Assembly: GCA_001823925.1 (NCBI GenBank)
Contig: MHWB01000011.1
Location: forward strand, 25,471 to 89,470
Reading direction: 5' to 3'
DNA length: 64,000 nt
Source of the DNA: Candidatus Zambryskibacteria bacterium RIFCSPLOWO2_01_FULL_39_39
GTDB lineage: Bacteria; Patescibacteriota; Minisyncoccia; Phycocordibacterales; WO2-35-19
Shown here: positions 7,627-62,380 of the stretch, piece by piece
How the letters are laid out: each line of letters opens with the position of its first letter
Numbering within the stretch: the stretch's first letter is position 1
Translations under genes and position numbers: made by a program
Notes under the pieces: model-generated
What the model was told of the DNA's origin: nothing
The model's input: the letters and a program-made list of their open reading frames with translations, nothing else
Database searches by the model: none

Positions 7627-10600
7627 TTATTTAATTTTAATTTTCAATTTATAATTTTCAATTTTCAACTCTTCTCCGTCGTTTTCAGCAAAAATAATTT
7701 CATTTATATTAGTTGGTTTTTTAATTTCCGAAATAACAGAGTTCAAAAATTCTTTACCCACATTGTCCGTCTCCACCAAAAGCTCTATTGCGTCAGCTGG
7801 CATTAAATTTTTATTCTTACGAAGTTCTTGAACAGCTCTTATAAAACTTCTTAGATCACCCTCTTTTTGCAATTCTTTTGTTATTTTTGTGTCCAACTCC
7901 ACTTCTGTTTCTAAATTTTCCTGGAAGATTATTTTTTTAACATTAACTTCATCCTTTATTAATTCCAAATATTCTTCTTTATCTTTCAATTTTAAATCTT
8001 TAATTTTTAATTTACTAAGAGGTTGTCTTACTTTTATATTGGCCGTCATTCTTTTTTCTAACGCTAAAGAAACTGTTTTTCTTACCTCTTGCATCATTTC
8101 CAAAATTTCTGCGAAATGGAGCCCTTCGACTTCGCTCAGGACGGGCCAACTGCAAAGATGGACACTCTCTGGATCATTTGGAAATTTTAATTTCAAATAA
8201 ATATGTTCAGCAAAAAATGGAGTAAGTGGTGCCATATATTTTGCCAATTCTAATAAAACAAAGCGAGTGGTTGAGAGCACATTATTTTTGTCTTTTATGT
8301 CTTCCGATTTAAATCTATCTCTTGAGCGTCTAATATACCAAGTAGAAAAATCTTCAATAAAATTCAGGATGGGACGGGTTGCGCCGTAAATATCACAAAC
8401 ATTAAGTGCTTTGGTTATTTCTTTATGGAGTTCACTTAAGCGAACCAAAATCCATCTGTCCAAAACATGTTCCGACTCTTGATTATTTTCAACAACTTTT
8501 TTGTCAGAATACATTTCATAAAACGAAAGTACATTTTCAAGTTTTAAAATAACTTTTTTTGAAACTTCATCTACCCCTTTTTCAGAAAAATTTAAATCCT
8601 CGGCTTTCATGACCGGAGTTGACATGAGATAATATCTCAAACTATCTGCTCCATATTTATCAACAATAACTGTCGGGTCTTGGTAATTTTTAAGCCTCTT
8701 GCTCATTTTTTTACCATCTTCTGCTAAAACAATGCCGTTGACTACCACATTATTAAAAACTTGTTTTCCAAACAAACTAGTTGCAAAAACATGCTGGTAA
8801 TAAAACCACTTACTAATCTGGTCAAGCCCTTCGGCAATAAAGTCGGCAGGAATACGACTTTCTACTTTTTCTTTATTTTCAAATGGATAATGGTAGGAGG
8901 AAAAAGGCACTGATCCAGAATCAAACCATGTGTCCAAAACATCAGTTACCCTTTTAAAAACTATGCCTTTGTCATTAACCAATTCTACCTCATCTATATA
9001 TGGCCTATGTAAATCAAGTTCGTAATTTTCGTTATGAGGAAGTGGTACAAAATTTAGTTCTCCAAATTCAGCAAACTCTGATTTATGTATTCCTTTTTCT
9101 TTTATTTCAATTGACCTGTTCAAATTTGCCCCCTCCGTCACCATATACATAGCCGCAATCGGACCATCGTGACTCACCAAAAGAATGTTTTTATCAGAAT
9201 ATTTTTTTTCAATATTAAAAAGTAGACCCCCCATTCTCTTATTTAAGTCAAGTAAAGTCTCTCCACCATCAGGTGCTTTTTCAAATCTTTCTCTCATATT
9301 TGCAAACAATTTCCAATATTCATCCCATTTTTTACCTTCAAAATCTGGTCCCTTTTTAAATTCTCCCAGCAAATCATCTACTTTGACATCCTCTTTACTT
9401 AAATCTAAAGCTTGGCGCACAATTTCTGCAGTTTCAAGACATCTTTCAAAAGGAGAAGTAATTATTAAATCAATTTTTTCTTTTTTTATATCTTGGGCAA
9501 CAGTCTGTACTTGCTTTCTACCTTCCTTGGTTAAGGGAAAAATATTTTGGGGATCTGAATTTATAATATCCGAAATATTTTGCTCGGCTTCTCCATGTCT
9601 CATTACAAAATATTTATTGCCAGATTTTTTGGTATATTTTTGTAGCTCTTCAACTGACCCGATCACTAACCTTTCCTCTGTTTTTTCATTTTCCCAAACA
9701 GGAATAGTGTTTGCCCAAAAACGCTGTCTGCTAATAGACCAGTCACGAGCATTTTCTAACCAACTATGCCAACGACCTTCTTTGATGTGTTTTGGTTGCC
9801 AATTTATATTTTCTGCGTACTCAAGAAGATCTTTTTTTATTTTTGAAACTGAAACAAACCAGGAACTGGTGGCATAATTTAAAAGCGGAGTTTCGCACCT
9901 CCAACAGTGTGGGTATGAGTGCTCATATTTTTCCTTAGAGAAAAGGAGATTTTTTTGAGCTAATATTTTCAAAACCTCCACATCAGTTTTTTGTGGATCC
10001 TCTATTGGTTTTACAGAAAGCCCAGCCAAATCGAGAACCTCCGATCTTATAATGCCATCCATACCAACATGTTGAACAAACGGTAATTTTTCTTTTTTAC
10101 CAAGTTCCATATCATCTTCCCCAAAAGCAGGGGCAATATGAACCACCCCCGTACCACTTTCAGTGGTCACGAACGAAGTGGCATAAATCTTCCAACCATT
10201 TTTTCTATTTTCTAATGTCTTACTTTTTGAATAATCATCAAAAATTGGTTTGTAAGATTTGCCAACTAAATCTTTGCCTTTAAACTCTTCAACAATCTCA
10301 AACTTATCCTCTTTAAAAATTTCTTTGAGCTTTTCTTTAATGAGAATAAATCTAGTGAGATTTTCCATGGTCTCATCTTTCTTTTCTATTTTTACATAAA
10401 TAAAATCTGGGTTTACTGCCAAGGCAACATTGCCAGGCAGAGTCCATGGGGTAGTTGTCCAAGCCAAAATAAAAGTATTCGGTTCATCCACTAATTCAAA
10501 TTTAGCTGTTACCGCGATATCTTTAATATCTTTATAGCCTTCTGCTACTTCTGCTTGAGCTAGTGTAGTCTCACAACGCGGACAAATATACATTGATCGA

Positions 10601-31463: not shown

Positions 31464-33833
31464 TTATTTTAAATTACCCCAATTTTCCCCCACACTACTA
31501 TTTACAACAATGGGTACCCCCAGCGTCTCCTCCTTTGTTAATGCACTCTCCATAATTAATTTTATTTGGGGTACTACTTTTTCTAAAATATCGCTATCAA
31601 TTTCATAGACAATTTCATCGTGTATCTGAAGTATTAAATTTATTTTTTCTCCTAATTTTTCTTCCTCCAAATAATTATTAACGTCCCTCATAGCAATTTT
31701 TGTAAGATCTGCAGAGGTACCTTGTATGGGAGCGTTCACAGCCATTCTCTCCGCAGCCGCTCTGATAAAAGGTATTTTGGATTTTATACCTTCAAAGTAT
31801 CTGCGTCTACCAAAAAATGTTTTGGTATATCCCAGCCTGTTTGCATCAATTTTGGTCTGATCTAGATAATTAGAAAGTCCAGAAAAAGTTTCAAAATATT
31901 TATTATAAAATTCTTGAGCAGTCTTCCTGTCTGTCCCAAGGTTACCTTGCAGAGCGCTTACCCCCATTCCATAGAGTATGCCGAAGTTTATAACCTTGGC
32001 CCCCCTTCTCATCTCCTTACTCACCTCTTTTTCTTCTACCCCATAAACTTCTGCCGCAACAGCAGAGTGGACATCTTTGCCACTCTTAAATATTTCTATA
32101 AGTTTCTCATCTTTTGAAAGAAAGGCAGCGATACGAAGCTCCACTTGAGAGTAATCAAAAGCGACCAAGCTCTTGCCTTTGTCAGAGACAAAAGCATCTC
32201 TTATCAGCCGCCCCCTATCTGTGCCTATGGGAATATTTTGTAGGTTAGGATTTTGAGAAGCCATCCTGCCCGTAGTGCTTCCTGCCAAAACAAACCTTGC
32301 GTGTAGTTTATTATCTTTGTCCACTAAATTTTGTATTGGTTCTAGATAAGTTGAGAGAAGTTTAGAGAGCTCTCTGTATTCCAAAATAAGAGGGATGATA
32401 AGGTGAGTATCTTTTAGCTTTTCTAATTCAGACTCTCTGGTGGACCTTGCGCCTCCGGAAGTCTTTTTCAAATTCTTTACAAAAAGCCCCATCTTATCAA
32501 AAAGTATTTCACCAAGCTGTTTTGGAGAAGAAATATTGAATTCTACTCCAGCTTGCTTCCATATATTTTTTTCTATTTTTGAGAGTTCTTTTTTGTATTT
32601 ATCAGCAAGCTTCTTTATAAGTTCTATATCTACCAAGACACCATGCTTTTGCATTTTATTTACCACGGGGATCAAAGGCTTTTCTATTTTTTCAAATACA
32701 TCCTCACTCTCCCTCCTTTTCAATTCTTCAAATATAACCTTCTTTGCTTCTTTAAAATTTCTTGTATTTGCGAAGTTTAAAATATCTTCTAATTTAGGAT
32801 CTGTAATATTGGAATCTGCCACCCAAAGAGCTAGGGAGACTTCTTCTAGCTCTCTTTCGTCTATATTTTCTTCCTGTTTTTCTTCTACAATTTCTCTGCC
32901 ATTTTTCTTCAATACTTCCTGAAGTTTGCCCGACATAGTCCTAAACTGCAGTTCCCCAAAAAGCTTCTGCGCATTTTCTAAATTTATTCCCTCTTTCCAA
33001 CTCTTCTTCGGCATTTCAAAGTCTATAGGAGCATCCCTTCTTATTGTTGCAAGCATTTCGCTAAACCTTGCTTCTTCTTCACCTTCCTTGAGCAACTCCA
33101 CAATTCTTTTCTTTATACCTTTTTTTATAAAAACATCTTTGTTCTTTTTTAAAGTTTTGTATATCTCTTCAATACTTCCAAAATTTACAATTAGTTCTGT
33201 CGCCGACTTTTCTCCTATACCTTCTATGCCTATTATATTATCCGACGGATCGCCCCGAAGCCCTTTGAAACTTGGTAAAAGTTTTGGGAGGAAACTAAAC
33301 CTTTCCAAAACAGCCTTTTCATCATAAAGTATTGTGTCGTTCAAACCCTTTTTTAAGGTGTAGACCATTACCCTGTTATCATCAACAAGTTGCATGGTAT
33401 CCATGTCTCCCGAAGCAATTATTATTTCCAAGTCTTTTTTTAATTTTTCTTTAAGCTCTTCTACAATAGTGCCTAAAATATCGTCCGCTTCAAATCCGGG
33501 ATGAGAATATGTAGGAATACCCAAAGCGGTACAAACTTCTTTGGACTTTTCCATTTGAGAAACTAATTCCGGGTCAGACTTAGCTCTGCCGGCTTTGTAA
33601 TTCTCATAAACCTCATGCCTATAGGTAGGTTTGGGCAAATCATAACAAGCAATTATATAGTCTGGTTTTAGATCCGTTGCTATCTTAAGTATCATAGTCG
33701 CAAGACCATAGAGAGCCCCCGTAGGCTGGCCGCTACTGGTCGCAAAGTCAGGCAGGGCGTGGTATGCCCTATGCAATATTGCGTGTGCATCAAGCAATAC
33801 TAATCTTTCTTTGGTTTTCTCCGGTTTTGCCAT
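31464..33833 (-). CDS. polA: DNA polymerase I (5'-3' exonuclease plus polymerase domains)
   Basis: N-terminal 5'-nuclease motifs; pol motif RRGAKVINFGILYGMG. Confidence 0.9.
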   Translation of the reverse strand: MAKPEKTKERLVLLDAHAILHRAYHALPDFATSSGQPTGALYGLATMILKIATDLKPDYIIACYDLPKPTYRHEVYENYKAGRAKSDPELVSQMEKSKEVCTALGIPTYSHPGFEADDILGTIVEELKEKLKKDLEIIIASGDMDTMQLVDDNRVMVYTLKKGLNDTILYDEKAVLERFSFLPKLLPSFKGLRGDPSDNIIGIEGIGEKSATELIVNFGSIEEIYKTLKKNKDVFIKKGIKKRIVELLKEGEEEARFSEMLATIRRDAPIDFEMPKKSWKEGINLENAQKLFGELQFRTMSGKLQEVLKKNGREIVEEKQEENIDERELEEVSLALWVADSNITDPKLEDILNFANTRNFKEAKKVIFEELKRRESEDVFEKIEKPLIPVVNKMQKHGVLVDIELIKKLADKYKKELSKIEKNIWKQAGVEFNISSPKQLGEILFDKMGLFVKNLKKTSGGARSTRESELEKLKDTHLIIPLILEYRELSKLLSTYLEPIQNLVDKDNKLHARFVLAGSTTGRMASQNPNLQNIPIGTDRGRLIRDAFVSDKGKSLVAFDYSQVELRIAAFLSKDEKLIEIFKSGKDVHSAVAAEVYGVEEKEVSKEMRRGAKVINFGILYGMGVSALQGNLGTDRKTAQEFYNKYFETFSGLSNYLDQTKIDANRLGYTKTFFGRRRYFEGIKSKIPFIRAAAERMAVNAPIQGTSADLTKIAMRDVNNYLEEEKLGEKINLILQIHDEIVYEIDSDILEKVVPQIKLIMESALTKEETLGVPIVVNSSVGENWGNLK

Positions 33834-34284
33834 GCTCGAATTTTACCACAATATGTGGAGGCATTATACCGGCAATTTGCTCAGGCCATTCTACAAAAAC
33901 AAGGTTTTGGGGGTCAGAAATTATCTCCTGCCAGCCTAAATTTATCATCTCTTCTTCTTTTTCTATGCGGTAGGCGTCGATATGAATGAGATTCTCGACC
34001 TCACCCCCCAACCCCCTCCCCTTGACAAGGGGAGGGGGAGAAGAAAACGGAAGTTTTCTTGGGGGTGAGGTCTTATAAATTTTCATAATAACAAAAGTGG
34101 GGCTTTGGATTGTTTCTTTTACACCAAAACTCTCGGCCAAATATTTCATAAAAGTAGTCTTGCCACTCCCCAATTCTCCATATAACCCAACCACTAGCGC
34201 AGAATCGGTTTTAGGTTTTAATTTTTGGGAAAAGTCGGTCGCTATTTGAGCTGTTTCTGAAACGTTTTTAGATAAAAATTCCAT
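33790..34284 (-). CDS. tsaE: tRNA t6A biosynthesis protein TsaE (YjeE ATPase) carrying an in-frame GC-rich palindromic element
   Basis: LYGELGSGKTTF P-loop, SPTF, HIDAYR; extra SPPRKLPFSSPPPLVKGRGLGGEV segment. Confidence 0.8.
   Translation of the reverse strand: MEFLSKNVSETAQIATDFSQKLKPKTDSALVVGLYGELGSGKTTFMKYLAESFGVKETIQSPTFVIMKIYKTSPPRKLPFSSPPPLVKGRGLGGEVENLIHIDAYRIEKEEEMINLGWQEIISDPQNLVFVEWPEQIAGIMPPHIVVKFEHGKTGENQRKISIA
33997..34072. mobile_element. GC-rich TIR-bounded palindromic element (copy A), inside the tsaE coding sequence in frame
   Basis: TIR gacctcaccccc / gggggtgaggtc enclosing hairpins ccccctcccc-ttgacaa-ggggaggggg and agaaaac-gg-gttttct. Confidence 0.7.
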
Positions 34285-34327: not shown

Positions 34328-34801
34328 CTAATACACTCCGCGTGGTCCGCGGAGATAATCAATTTCCCAAAAGTCAGTTCGCCACTGACCATCGGTGTAG
34401 ATGTAGAAACTTCTTGATGCTGTGCCTGCATATTGGCCGGGCGTACAGCCAGCAGTCCTTGTATCAGACTCCGGTGGTGTCGACGGACAAATCCCTCGGA
34501 CAGTGATGACGACATCACGTCGCCCGAGAAAGTTGTAATACCCCCGAGAAACAGTGTTTCCCGACGGTAACACCACACCATGCCACTGTCCGTCCGGCCC
34601 CTTAATTGAAATTGGCTGTCCATTCTCAAAGACCTCCAGTGGCACGTTTGTGTTGTTGGTCAACACAACAGTCAAAATTGGCGGTGTTGCCAAAGAAGAC
34701 AACCTTCCCCAACCACCACCGCCACCTTGGGTCGTGGCACACCCGCCCGCCAAAACGGCGAGTAAGGTGGCCACAAAAGCCAACAAAATGTTCGTTTTCA
34801 T
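34328..34801 (-). CDS. Lipoprotein (signal peptide plus LAGGC lipobox); GC-rich compositional island
   Basis: MKTNILLAFVATLLAVLAGGCATT; GC content clearly above the flanks. Confidence 0.55.
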   Translation of the reverse strand: MKTNILLAFVATLLAVLAGGCATTQGGGGGWGRLSSLATPPILTVVLTNNTNVPLEVFENGQPISIKGPDGQWHGVVLPSGNTVSRGYYNFLGRRDVVITVRGICPSTPPESDTRTAGCTPGQYAGTASRSFYIYTDGQWRTDFWEIDYLRGPRGVY

Positions 34802-34938
34802 AGAACCAGTCTCCTACCCTCTATTATAGCATACTCTGTTTTAAAATGCAATAGCCATTTAAAATTTCAAAATGTAGCGATTAATCGCTACAAATTACAA
34901 CACACACCAAAGTGTCAAAGGGCGCCTTTGACACTTAT

Positions 34939-34977
34939 TCCCTCTCCTGCTTCTAGGATAGAGGTTGGGGGTGAGGT
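34939..34977. repeat. Half copy (copy E) of the GC-rich element: hairpin ccctctcc-tgcttcta-ggatagagg plus TIR gggggtgaggt
   Basis: Matches the 3' half of copy D. Confidence 0.5.
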
Positions 34978-34988
34978 ATAATAAACTC

Positions 34989-38068: not shown

Positions 38069-38422
38069 TTAAACCAGATGACTCCTTATTTTATCTAAAA
38101 CCTTTTCTGTATCATTATCCACTTCGATATTTGGGATCCTTAAAATTTTATAACCAAGCTCTTTGAAAAATTTGTCTCTTACGGCATCATATTCTTTTGC
38201 TTCTCTTGTATTGTGAATTTTCCCATCAAGCTCAACGATTAATTTTCCCTTGGCACAATAAAAATCCAAAATATACCCACCTATACTATATTGTCTTTTA
38301 AACCTGAAACCAAGTTTTTTATTTCTTAACTCTTCCCACAATAAATTTTCTTTAGGGGTAGCATTTTGACGCAACTCTCTTCTTCTGTCTCCTAATTCTA
38401 ATATGTTGTGGATTAATTTCAT
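38069..38422 (-). CDS. DUF559 / Vsr-like endonuclease-domain protein (paralog 1)
   Basis: 117 aa; GGYILDFYC...VELDG..H motif; ~55% identical to the 43427-43783 product. Confidence 0.7.
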   Translation of the reverse strand: MKLIHNILELGDRRRELRQNATPKENLLWEELRNKKLGFRFKRQYSIGGYILDFYCAKGKLIVELDGKIHNTREAKEYDAVRDKFFKELGYKILRIPNIEVDNDTEKVLDKIRSHLV

Positions 38423-38424
38423 AA

Positions 38425-38518
38425 AAAGTCCTCACCCCTTATCCCCTCTCCTTGGCAAGGAGAGGGGGCGAGTAATCTTCTACATTATACTAAAATCTAG
38501 ATTGGGGTGAGGACTTTT
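38425..38518. mobile_element. GC-rich TIR-bounded palindromic element (copy B), complete, abutting the DUF559 start codon
   Basis: TIR aaagtcctcacccc / ggggtgaggacttt; inner hairpin cccctctcc-ttggcaa-ggagagggg. Confidence 0.7.
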
Positions 38519-38562
38519 TAAAATAGGTGTTTGAAAATTGAGATTAGTGATATATTACTCTT

Positions 38563-39099
38563 ATGTCAGGACATAATAAATGGTCAAAGATAAAAAATAA
38601 AAAAGCTGTTACAGATGCTCAAAAAAGTAAAATTTTTGGTAAACTGGTAAGGTTTATCAGTGTAGAATCTAAAAAAGCTAAAGGAGATGTAAACGCTCCC
38701 GGACTTAGGACGGCCATAGAAAAAGCCAAGGAAGCCAACGTGCCGAGCGACAACATTGAGAGAGCTATCAAAAAGGGGGTGGGTGGTGAAGGGGGAGAAA
38801 TGGAACAAATTGTTTATGAAAGCTACGGCCCCGGAGGCTCCGCTTTGATTATTGAGGCTTTGACAGAAAATAGAAACAGAGCTGCCCAAGAAATAAAACA
38901 CATTCTCTCAAAAAATGGATTTGAGCTGGCGGTACCCGGATCAGCCACATGGGCCTTTGAAAAACAAGTTGGAGGAAGTGGCTGGTTACCCAAAAACACC
39001 ACCCCTATATCCGAAGAAGACGGCACAAAACTTTCTAATTTAATAGAAGAACTTGAAGAAAATGATGAGGTCCAAGAAGTTTTTACAAATGCAGAATAA
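38563..39099 (+). CDS. yebC: YebC/PmpR family regulator (short form, 178 aa)
   Basis: MSGHNKWSKIKNKK N-terminus; GPGG motif; lacks ~60 aa relative to the E. coli YebC length. Confidence 0.75.
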   Translation: MSGHNKWSKIKNKKAVTDAQKSKIFGKLVRFISVESKKAKGDVNAPGLRTAIEKAKEANVPSDNIERAIKKGVGGEGGEMEQIVYESYGPGGSALIIEALTENRNRAAQEIKHILSKNGFELAVPGSATWAFEKQVGGSGWLPKNTTPISEEDGTKLSNLIEELEENDEVQEVFTNAE

Positions 39100-43351: not shown

Positions 43352-43887
43352 AACCTCACCCCATCCGACTTGCGTCGGATTGCCCCTCTCCTAGAAGCAG
43401 GAGAGGGGGAAGAAAAAAGATAAAAAATGAAATGGATACATAATAATCAAAGTCTTCGTGACAGAAGAAAAGAATTAAGAAAAAATTCTACTAGATCGGA
43501 ACAAGATCTGTGGTTTGAATTAAGAAATAGTAAATCGGGGGTCAAGTTTAAAAGACAACATAGTGTTGGTGGATATATCGCTGATTTTTATTGTCAGAAG
43601 CACAATCTTATTATTGAAGTGGATGGAGAAATTCATAATTCAAAAGAGGCTCAAGAATATGATATGGTTAGAGATAAATATTTTACAGAACTTGGATATA
43701 GAGTGCTTAGAATACACAATAACGAAGTAGACAAAGATATAGAAAAGGTTTTAGATAAAATTAAAAGTTATTTTGTTAATTAAGATGGGTTATGTCAACT
43801 TAATTGGGTAATTAAGTTTTTTCTTTATTTCTCCCCTCTCCTGCTTCTAGGAGAGGGGCAGATCCCGAAAGGGATCGGGGTGAGGTT
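43352..43887. mobile_element. Composite GC-rich TIR element containing a DUF559 endonuclease gene: 11-bp perfect TIR aacctcacccc / ggggtgaggtt with paired internal hairpins flanking the gene
   Basis: Left end 43352-43410 (TIR plus hairpins atccgac..gtcggat and cccctctcc..ggagagggg); right end 43831-43887 (cccctctcc..ggagagggg, gatccc..gggatc, TIR). Confidence 0.5.
43427..43783 (+). CDS. DUF559 / Vsr-like endonuclease-domain protein (paralog 2)
   Basis: 118 aa; GGYIADFYC...IEVDGEIH motif. Confidence 0.7.
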   Translation: MKWIHNNQSLRDRRKELRKNSTRSEQDLWFELRNSKSGVKFKRQHSVGGYIADFYCQKHNLIIEVDGEIHNSKEAQEYDMVRDKYFTELGYRVLRIHNNEVDKDIEKVLDKIKSYFVN

Positions 43888-61471: not shown

Positions 61472-62380
61472 TTAATCTTTCAATATTTCTTTGACCAAAT
61501 TAAACCAATCCTCCACTCTCAAATCTTCGGCTCTCGCCTTCTCCGAAATCCCGCATTTCCCAAAACTCTCTCCCAGTCTTAATGTGTCAAGGTTGAACCT
61601 TGACACACCAGCGAGATTGCTTAGTAAAAGCTTCCTTTTGTGGGCAAATCCAGCTTTTAGTATTTCAAAAAATCTTTTTTCAGAAATTCCTTCGTTTCTT
61701 TCCTTTTTTGATGTAAGGGTGGTTGGAAAGGTTATTTTAAATCTGTCTTTACTTATATTCCTTATAGAAATAATGGCAGAATCTACTTTTGGTTTGGGGA
61801 AGAAACTCCCCGCTTTTATAATTCCACCATATTTAGGCTCTCCGTAAGCTTTTATTGAAATACTCAAAATACTTTCCTTGCCCGCCGTAGCTTTATGCGA
61901 AGGCTGGGTTTTTCTGTCGCGGGCCATTATCCTCTCTGCCACTTCTTTTTGCACCACAAAAGTAATTGATTTTGGAGGATTTGCAGACTCCAAAGCTTTT
62001 TTAAATAATGTGCCGGTTATGTAATACGGAATGTTGCCAACTAGCTTATAAGTGTCAAGGGGCGTCTTTTGGGACCGAGGCATTTCAAAGACGCCCTTTG
62101 ACACTTTCAGCACATCCCCTACTATTATCTGTAATCTGTTGCTTGCTATTTCTTGACTGAATTTGTTTTCAAGTTTTTTAGCAAGATTTTCATCTTTTTC
62201 TATCGCTATTATTTTAGATGCTTTTGTGAGCAAAATCTCAGTGAGTGTTCCCTCTCCTGGTCCCACTTCTACCACTACATCTGTTTTTTCAATTTGCGCG
62301 AAATCAGCAATTTTTTTCAAAATCACCCTATCTCTCAAAAAATTCTGCCCTAATGATTTTTTAGCTTTATGTTTAATCAT
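61472..62380 (-). CDS. rsmA: 16S rRNA (adenine1518/1519-N6)-dimethyltransferase (likely start MIKHK at 62380)
   Basis: SLGQNFL motif; VVEVGPGEGTLT SAM-binding motif. Confidence 0.85.
   Translation of the reverse strand: MIKHKAKKSLGQNFLRDRVILKKIADFAQIEKTDVVVEVGPGEGTLTEILLTKASKIIAIEKDENLAKKLENKFSQEIASNRLQIIVGDVLKVSKGVFEMPRSQKTPLDTYKLVGNIPYYITGTLFKKALESANPPKSITFVVQKEVAERIMARDRKTQPSHKATAGKESILSISIKAYGEPKYGGIIKAGSFFPKPKVDSAIISIRNISKDRFKITFPTTLTSKKERNEGISEKRFFEILKAGFAHKRKLLLSNLAGVSRFNLDTLRLGESFGKCGISEKARAEDLRVEDWFNLVKEILKD

Follow-up and report, generated by a model that had tools for sequence, protein, structure and literature searches.

The stretch of DNA analysed here, 64,000 nucleotides of contig MHWB01000011.1 of Candidatus Zambryskibacteria bacterium RIFCSPLOWO2_01_FULL_39_39 (hereafter the window), carries a tsaE gene that contains, in frame, a 76-bp palindromic element. 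The gene occupies positions 33790-34284 of the minus strand and encodes an intact product of 164 residues, as seen in the open reading frame (ORF) listing, in Pfam and TIGR matches and in an AlphaFold model. It reads straight through the element, a palindrome of BoxC/TM type (TM denoting a G/C-rich intrastrand triplex motif) at 33997-34072 that was recognised by its inverted repeats, its fold and a triplex-motif detector and that encodes TsaE residues 72-96 (TSPPRKLPFSSPPPLVKGRGLGGEV). The translation runs SPTFVIMKIYK, then TSPPRKLPFSSPPPLVKGRGLGGEV, then ENLIHIDAYR, and the element supplies the last base of the K71 codon followed by 25 full codons with no stop. The reading frame, the peptide, the coordinates and the absence of a stop codon were all found to be as an initial annotation of this DNA had given them.

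The element is built from two terminal blocks and two hairpins. On the plus strand the block GACCTCACCCCC at 33997-34008 forms a perfect 12-nt inverted repeat with the block GGGGGTGAGGTC at 34061-34072; the latter was identified by inverted-repeat search and is the element's 5' terminus in coding-strand orientation. Read on the coding strand, the block at 33997-34008 is G-rich (GGGGGTGAGGTC) and forms the 3' ‘third-strand’ block, a mirror of the neighbouring hairpin's purine arm but for one mismatch. This hairpin, CCCCCTCCCCTTG a CAAGGGGAGGGGG (34012-34038, with arms at 34012-34024 and 34026-34038), is a perfect 13-bp pyrimidine/purine structure and forms the core of the triplex motif. It is followed by an 8-bp spacer hairpin, AAGAAAAC-ggaa-GTTTTCTT (34041-34060, arms 34041-34048 and 34053-34060). 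As RNA the 76 nt are predicted to fold with -56.3 kcal/mol (z = -7.2), and none of 200 shuffled sequences was as stable. The sequence CCTCACCCC occurs eight times in the window against an expectation of 0.27, and the triplex-motif detector reports one unit on each strand of the element. A promoter and terminator scan of the element gave no signal, no intron or intein signature was found in it, and a scan against Rfam returned no family at either the gathering threshold or a permissive E-value; matches to NsiR4 and to miRNA families fell below threshold and were judged to be chance.

The identity of the gene product is well supported by its matches to Pfam PF02367 (3.4e-30, 105 bits against a cut-off of 26.6) and to TIGR00150 (2.4e-23, 82.5 bits against a cut-off of 60.1). 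Both matches are split in two around residues 72-96, and alignments to most solved TsaE structures are broken at the same place. The P-loop GxxGxGKT (G36-T43) is intact. The SPTF motif constitutes Switch I and the HxDxYR motif Switch II, and both have been shown to be required for the ATPase and for resetting of the t6A cycle (PMC6614819). On the minus strand of the window the codons for S61 P62 T63 F64 lie at 34093-34104 and those for H101 I D A Y R106 at 33967-33984. In alignment A1 residues S61, P62 and T63 as well as H101, I102, D103, Y105 and R106 are invariant; among relatives residue 64 is F or Y. These features suggest that the TsaE of the window is functional, and by analogy with other bacteria the gene is presumably essential. 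A TsaE protein of 164 residues with 100% identity was found in four NCBI metagenome-assembled genome (MAG) records and on 29 contigs, which argues that the presence of the element in tsaE is no artefact. Two further observations concern the surroundings of the gene. An ORF of 157 residues just upstream of it (34328-34801) resembles a lipoprotein and has no Pfam match, and its counterpart in relatives is also rich in strong local folds. In one related locus part of the gene is duplicated: the Switch I-loop segment recurs with 98% identity at L038:8283-8331, 1.2 kb upstream of tsaE.

The AlphaFold model of the window TsaE has a mean predicted local distance difference test score (pLDDT) of 82.9 and matches solved TsaE structures with structural TM-scores of 0.67-0.75. 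Within it the insert is modelled mostly as coil between the strands formed by residues 67-71 and 98-103, with pLDDT below 50 at residues 80-90. Structure prediction, which had been proposed as a check on whether the insert forms a loop, thus returned a low-confidence coil in an otherwise well-predicted TsaE fold. In the model the insert forms the tip of the beta-hairpin connecting Switch I with Switch II, and the topology of P-loop NTPases suggests that this tip faces away from the TsaD interface. A loop of 25 residues rich in proline and glycine is probably disordered, and at this position it would be exposed and harmless.

That the palindrome is an insertion, in frame and in an intact gene, is shown by comparison with other genomes. 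The tsaE gene was sampled from 80 species-representative genomes (L labels here and below stand for loci) and the segment from SPTF to DxYR was measured in each; a set of closest homologues comprised 120 protein clusters. The segment is exactly 27 residues long in 30 of the 80 loci and 23-26 residues long in a further eight, while 16 loci have 28-32 residues and 26 have 33-52. It had been argued that the loop would be native, and no insertion, if orthologues across the lineage all carried a segment of equivalent length; in fact 38 of the 80 loci have a segment of 23-27 residues, and these empty alleles are interleaved with occupied ones on a TsaE tree calculated with the loop masked. In many orthologues this position does hold unrelated sequence, as had been anticipated for a native loop, but these sequences are hairpin-forming inserts and so do not amount to one. 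The empty segments, of which SPTFVIEKIYELENKFFQHLIHIDAYR is a typical 27-residue example, have a conserved loop tip, EL-E/K-N/D-K-x-F-Q/K-H-L, and the loop residues of empty alleles within the clade are the same as those of outgroup empties. As excision could not restore native loop residues, the empty alleles within the clade were never occupied.

The window segment measures 46 residues against 27 in insert-free Parcubacteria orthologues, a net gain of 19 residues (57 nt). The element itself encodes 25, from which it follows that about six native codons have been overwritten, and the event is a replacement-insertion rather than a clean insertion. The estimate of some 22-25 extra residues in the initial annotation therefore holds for the residues that the element encodes but not for the gain in length. 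Similarly, the native spacer from Y to H had been put at about 8 residues after E. coli YjeE, for which we take the value to be 8, whereas in this lineage it is 11. An open frame through the loop is kept in all 80 loci and the varied insert lengths are all multiples of three. Inserts have also been lost in part: in P0015 the loop reads ACTTCACCACCA|GAGGTC, in which both termini are kept and 57 internal bases are gone, leaving TSPPEV. This has the form of a deletion footprint and points to decay of the insert, and internal deletions of this kind were found in L009 and L020 as well.

By its sequence the element is a palindromic form of the repeat known as BoxC, PIT or TM. The TM motifs described by Holder et al. 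(2015) occur in over 260 genomes, where they are associated with raised local instability, and in each unit a loop separates a pyrimidine arm from a purine arm, after which come a short spacer and a G-rich block mirroring the latter arm (PMC4666352). In E. coli they were found always to be intergenic, with no mobility genes near them, and PIT elements are given as without promoter or terminator activity in earlier work as cited in the same paper (PMC4666352). The terminal inverted repeats of the tsaE element correspond to the ‘third-strand’ block and its inverted copy, and it is this that makes the element a palindromic form of the TM motif. When compared by eye with the consensus in Table 1 of PMC4666352, the core is near-identical, with CCCTCTCCC..GGGAGAGGG..GGGGTGAGGG in E. 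coli and CCCCTCTCC..GGAGAGGGG..GGGGTGAGG in the window. A TM unit was defined as having a loop of 3-9 nt and a complementary purine arm of at least 7-8 bp, followed after a short spacer by a third block in which G stands on G, and A or T on A. The arms in the window, CCCCCTCCCCT / AGGGGAGGGGG, are of 11-13 bp, and the third block, GGGGGTGAGGT, lies 3 nt past the arm on the coding strand with one mismatch, other copies in the window having none or one. The units of the window may fold as single-strand triplexes.

A detector based on this architecture found five units in the 64-kb window, all at sites named in this text. The published E. coli TM unit no. 9 was recovered at its stated coordinates. 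The window has further copies of the same family outside genes, at 38428-38514, 43352-43887 and 34940-34978. The last of these is a degenerate solo TM end, CCCTCTCCTGCTTCTAGGATAGAGG ttg GGGGTGAGGT, on the plus strand upstream of a pilB-like gene. When metagenome contigs were scanned for exact patterns, TM units were found on at least 120 of them, with G+C contents from 0.36 to 0.70. Arm and third block covary between lineages, GGGGGAGG occurring with GGAGGGGG, GGGGAGAGGG with GGGTGAGGGG and GGGGAGGG with GGGTGGGG. On these contigs, where gene names were assigned by reading translated ORFs, TM units lie in frame inside putative genes for a holB-like clamp-loader subunit (L086), uvrD (L151), truB (L179), a histidine kinase (L107) and glgB (L194). 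A queG-like gene of 462 residues on L137 has TM units at 8998-9238 in the form of four exact and one diverged tandem TM-derived repeats; at the protein level this is a repeat of about 26 residues, TSPPSPLLIGEGGNDSEIIEKAKSLN, in some five tandem copies built on the TM unit. On many contigs, among them L083, L085, L088, L089, L093 and L095, a further conserved hairpin, AAGAGGGGC-N4-GCCCCTCTT, comes after the TM unit, and this combination in contigs of intermediate G+C suggests a composite repeat family belonging to another lineage.

Between genomes the element is better conserved than the gene that contains it. The window and L001 share 73 of 75 positions of the element (97.3%) against 74.5% and 77.0% in the two flanks; for the window and P0002 the figures are 72 of 76 (94.7%) against 79.7% and 75.6%, and for P0002 and L001 69 of 75 (92.0%) against 73.1% and 78.9%. 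Binomial tails for the element against the tsaE flanks in the two pairs that include the window are about 3e-5 and 3e-7. Identity falls sharply at the ends of the element and there is no co-conversion tract. One of the four differences in the P0002 copy is half of a compensatory change in the small hairpin from an A-T to a G-C pair. As far as the sequences go, this conservation would fit recent independent insertion, gene conversion from other copies or structural selection alike.

Evidence for the origin of such elements comes from the association of the TM family with DUF559 genes, to which it is physically tied in most of the bacterial lineages examined. At 43352-43887 of the window there is a full cassette of 536 bp in which a terminal block, a small hairpin and a GC hairpin stand on each side of a DUF559 gene, the terminal blocks being outermost. 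The gene (43427-43783, plus strand) encodes 118 residues and matches PF04480 with 1.6e-33. A second DUF559 gene, for a Vsr-like PD-(D/E)xK nuclease (PF04480, 2.7e-34), lies on the minus strand at 38069-38422 in the spacer between ruvB and yebC, and 6 nt upstream of it is an intergenic palindromic TM element of 87 bp (38428-38514) whose spacer contains a TATAAT-like box. TM units adjoin all the other Paceibacteria DUF559 genes that were examined (L001, L013, L028 and L201-L204). Among homologues from other phyla, taken from plasmid and chromid records, TM units flank the DUF559 gene on both sides in Deinococcus aetherius, D. proteolyticus, Sinorhizobium meliloti and Sphingomonas. They lie directly upstream of it in Azospirillum, in clusters downstream of it in Photobacterium and in Neisseria gonorrhoeae (in the latter at least 190 nt away), and within the 3' end of the ORF itself in Synechocystis; one-sided units within about 170 nt are found in Azospirillum, in Photobacterium and at E. 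coli ycjD. The association is close when set against the frequency of the motif: a 50-kb stretch of a D. proteolyticus plasmid has exactly two TM units, with the DUF559 gene between them at distances of 18 nt (from the upstream unit) and 3 nt (from the downstream unit), and in 50 kb of S. meliloti four of the seven units lie within 111 nt of it, while loci of the candidate phyla radiation (CPR) average one unit per 25 kb.

In E. coli K-12 ycjD is the sole DUF559 gene. Its end, with the stop codon, falls in a BoxC-like hairpin, and 164 nt downstream, past a duplicated 3' fragment of ycjD that stands between the gene and the BoxC unit, is published TM unit no. 9 (L205; E. coli K-12 1351040-1351406). 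Of 5426 complete E. coli genomes 3378 (62%) have the gene and 38% lack it. Strain 536 of uropathogenic E. coli (UPEC) was considered as a clean empty ycjD site and rejected; it lacks ycjD, but the region downstream of fabI has been replaced by genes for a TetR regulator and RND efflux. The DUF559 genes match the profiles PF04480 / PF18741. An alignment of 16 DUF559 sequences from Patescibacteria, Deinococcota, Cyanobacteriota and Alpha- and Gammaproteobacteria has invariant DF, ExDG, H, D and R, residues of catalytic type, and the nearest solved structure is 3HRL, an "endonuclease-like protein". Two minor observations concern these genes. On L194 (2-1240) a single reading frame free of stops runs through four TM units, a DUF559 gene and the beginning of glgB. 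DUF559 proteins of 116-117 residues (P0172, P0199, P0201 and P0223) bear the JGI label "leucyl-tRNA synthetase", which may stem from a reference genome in which the two genes are fused or adjacent.

The ruvB-yebC spacer occurs in four states among relatives. In many relatives it is only 10-25 nt long; in L001, L013 and L028 it holds a full DUF559 cassette; in the window the cassette lies in the opposite orientation (38069-38563); and in L009 and L015 it holds gene-less palindromes with cassette-type ends, those of L009 being of the L013/L028 type and those of L015 of the L001 type. It is thus a second shared site, with three TM sequence types represented (among the window, L001, L005, L009, L013, L015 and L028), and the occupied alleles are also longer by 35-50 nt upstream of yebC. 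In composition the tsaE element matches the gene-less palindromes of this spacer, with its two terminal blocks, a single GC hairpin and a single small one.

The loop of tsaE has been occupied many times. A segment of at least 33 residues is found in 26 of the 80 species loci and in 60 of the 120 closest homologues, all in frame, and the inserts fall into at least eight peptide families. The TM unit in the register of the window, TAT AAR ACC TCA CCC (T-S-P), is shared by the window, L004, L005, L017 and L022, while L001 has the same register as CAC CAG ACC TCA CCC and a second register, TAY GAC CTC ACC CC, is found in L006, L009 and L010. L005 has an inverted TM interior, and L002 and L010 have half units in either orientation. 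Strong hairpins unrelated to TM occupy the loop in L011, in L012/L019/L024, and in L030, L031, L032, L043 and L062, with fold energies of the loop regions between -16 and -46 kcal/mol. No copies of these non-TM hairpins were found elsewhere in their own 20-kb loci, which offer too little sequence per genome for this negative to carry weight. Tandem repeats without hairpins occur as well, TCAATCT three times in L015 (10181-10261) and GCAAGCA repeats in L008 (10187-10285), and the loop therefore tolerates products of slippage too. Hairpin density was measured over 37 low-GC loci at a threshold of -30 kcal/mol, a scan at -25 having been discarded because it was swamped by loci of higher GC. Strong hairpins number 0.34 per kb in tsaE, where a single loop of some 15 nt contains all of them; the figures for other long ORFs and for DNA between ORFs are 0.043 and 0.43 per kb. 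Empty tsaE loops contain no pre-existing hairpin; their folds range from -0.6 to -17.7 kcal/mol, most being weaker than -10, with no shared structure or motif. Strong hairpins were also seen in an ORF of about 2.4 kb downstream of tsaE, presumed to be polA, at L002:7057, L008:11943, L009:13609, L015:11313, L031:10211, L032:12307 and L034:12534; five of these have perfect stems of 10 bp or more, and they lie in two regions of the protein, residues ~310-380 and ~707-715.

Taken together these data suggest, with a probability that we put at about 0.8, that a gene-less BoxC/PIT/TM palindrome derived from a collapsed DUF559 cassette landed in the tsaE loop and is translated and tolerated there. The gene-less palindromes of this lineage would be the collapsed ends of short cassettes encoding the Vsr-like DUF559 protein, and one copy would have entered the stretch that encodes the hairpin tip between Switch I and Switch II, at the cost of the codons noted above. 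Its survival would be due to a length that preserves the frame and to the lack of a stop in the frame that is read. The element would then be transcribed and translated as a Pro/Gly-rich loop of 25 residues, and we propose that TsaE keeps working because this loop faces away from the ATP site. The element may spread or be kept up through the DUF559 nuclease, as REP (repetitive extragenic palindromic) sequences do through RAYT (REP-associated tyrosine transposase), or by gene conversion among copies; by this analogy the element would be mobile and DUF559 its candidate agent. Several points weigh against this account. We infer production of the loop from the sequence, and the 90% cluster of the window TsaE contains no shorter or excision variants. 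No direct repeat that could be a target-site duplication surrounds the tsaE, 38428 or 43352 copies, which leaves a classical cut-and-paste mechanism of the type used by transposable elements of the miniature inverted-repeat class (MITEs) unsupported, and the only sign of target preference at CCTCACCCC is a conserved A beside it, with no defined target sequence. Two cyanobacterial DUF559 genes have no TM unit within 500 nt, and about 95% of the TM matches on the 120 or more metagenome contigs have no DUF559 gene nearby. We know of no activity for DUF559, that of a transposase included. Finally, tolerance of the loop is certainly part of the recurrence, but tolerance alone does not obviously account for its frequency at one loop.

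Could the residues belong to TsaE itself? A loop native to the lineage and palindromic by chance would agree with the many orthologues that have extra residues at this position, but the empty alleles of close relatives have already refuted it, and it would leave unexplained both the extragenic copies of this sequence in the window and the TM unit in unrelated genes and phyla; we regard it as having next to no probability. Scarcely better is the suggestion that the element never appears in the protein, being spliced from the RNA or skipped by the ribosome, or that tsaE is dead. The very stable RNA fold, -56 kcal/mol, might be taken in its favour, yet the frame is open in 80 of 80 loci through inserts whose lengths vary by threes, both halves of TsaE are conserved with P-loop and switch motifs intact, and the element bears no intron, intein or Rfam signature, so that this too is very improbable.

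The frequency of occupation could instead reflect selection, either for a hairpin in the tsaE message or DNA or for a longer TsaE loop that is advantageous and kept whatever its sequence. Some insert is present in half of the closest homologues, stems stay perfect, with one compensatory change, and the element is more conserved than tsaE. On the other hand the tree intersperses the 38 insert-free loci among occupied ones, inserts are eroded by deletions within them (P0015, L009, L020), peptide sequence and orientation vary freely, and the element has no promoter or terminator signal, the same having been reported of PIT elements in work cited in PMC4666352. Such selection appears distinctly improbable. 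Site-directed insertion or homing, in which a nuclease cuts the empty site and repair copies in a hairpin element, would make the tsaE loop and the ruvB-yebC spacer preferred landing sites. It is compatible with the capture of a gene-less palindrome preferred here and would be a reason for the hot spot, accounting for the recurrence, the shared junctions and the high identity of the element. The left junction TAT AAR|ACC TCA CCC is found in five lineages, most of them scattered on the tree (with CAC CAG in L001), a second register recurs in three loci, conservation drops at the ends of the element without co-conversion, hairpins are enriched in tsaE over other long ORFs, and three TM sequence types share the ruvB-yebC spacer. 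However, the occupation of one loop by at least eight unrelated hairpin families as well as tandem repeats is unlike the work of one sequence-specific enzyme, no target motif is conserved except the A beside the element, and the empty sites fold weakly and have no common structure. Homing is therefore held to be unlikely, though it deserves consideration.

The findings can be compared with several known systems. The resemblance to BoxC/PIT/TM extends from the three-block unit and near-identical core to the dispersed multi-copy distribution, the "palindromic" paired forms and the link with local rearrangement. The setting differs in that the E. coli units are always intergenic and reported never to be beside mobility functions, whereas here units lie in frame inside tsaE and other genes and flank DUF559, E. 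coli ycjD included. Rickettsia palindromic elements (RPEs; Ogata et al. 2000, 2002) are palindromic repeats found in frame in conserved genes and translated, according to the account in PMC10969869. The comparison with RPEs made in the initial annotation is apt for the phenomenon, in-frame and stop-free insertion at a loop position, and can be extended to extra peptides at positions compatible with the fold and to several families per genome. The element described here is an analogue only, set apart by its presumably unrelated sequence, by its length (76 bp as opposed to ~100-150 bp), by its phylum, by the repeated use of one loop by many families and by the candidate partner gene DUF559. With the REP/REPIN-RAYT system the cassettes share a single- or few-copy nuclease-type gene between inverted copies of a hairpin repeat, a repeat that is otherwise scattered without the gene, and paired inverted units as the mobile-looking form. 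They differ in having a PD-(D/E)xK DUF559 protein in place of an HUH Y1 (IS200/IS605-like) transposase, which makes the system an analogue at most; the units are also of triplex type, and their mobilisation is putative. MITEs such as Correia, ERIC and RUP are likewise small, with strong fold-back, longer gene-carrying relatives and occasional in-frame intragenic copies, and the perfect 12-nt terminal inverted repeats of the tsaE element recall them, but it has no target-site duplication and its longer copies encode DUF559 and no canonical transposase. Vsr-like (EDxHD) homing endonucleases, for example I-Bth0305I, reside in introns or inteins and cut the empty allele (PMC3239194, PMC2677866). 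DUF559 may resemble them as a small Vsr-related nuclease with selfish-gene behaviour and patchy occupancy of the same site; it differs in being free-standing between repeats.

Protein-coding palindromes are recurrent in the window, as they are in Rickettsia (PMC10969869). At 311-361 tatD contains a perfect 51-nt palindrome with arms of 20 nt (AAACCCCAAGGTGAGACCTT ... AAGGTCTCACCTTGGGGTTT) that encodes KPQGETLGNFQGLTLGF in frame. It adds about nine residues relative to Thermotoga TatD and differs from the TM element, and its core is also found in frame in polA of L032 (12307-12341). A palindrome in ksgA/rsmA (62050-62106), with 20-nt arms AAGTGTCAAGGGGCGTCTTT / AAAGACGCCCTTTGACACTT, has a related intergenic copy at 34908-34935. 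It was considered as a further insertion and rejected, as the segment is only some three residues longer than in B. subtilis KsgA.

To our knowledge neither an origin nor mobility has been described for BoxC/PIT/TM repeats since the 1990s. In the searchable literature we found nothing that links DUF559 or ycjD to BoxC or triplex motifs and nothing on in-frame palindromes in Patescibacteria. The repeat family is thus known and its setting new, and the recurrence at the tsaE loop and the association with DUF559 are, as far as that literature goes, new leads. A tentative reading, on balance doubtful, is that BoxC/PIT/TM units are the ends and gene-less derivatives of a widespread selfish DUF559 (YcjD-type) cassette, a counterpart of REP/RAYT; on the same reading the cassette would span Patescibacteria, Deinococcota, Proteobacteria and probably Cyanobacteria. 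If this is true, TM units in the small genomes of the CPR would colonise codons as well and would favour the TsaE hairpin between Switch I and Switch II as a place to land. The CPR is, after Rickettsia, a second independent lineage in which palindromic selfish DNA would be read as protein. The hairpin constitutes a natural and repeatedly used insertion-tolerant site between the switch motifs of TsaE. The view of BoxC/TM as strictly intergenic needs revision, given the in-frame units in tsaE, uvrD, truB, glgB and the holB-like and queG-like genes. DUF559, an uncharacterised nuclease family that includes YcjD of E. coli, is a candidate partner enzyme, and the nature and spread of BoxC become directly testable in E. 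coli.

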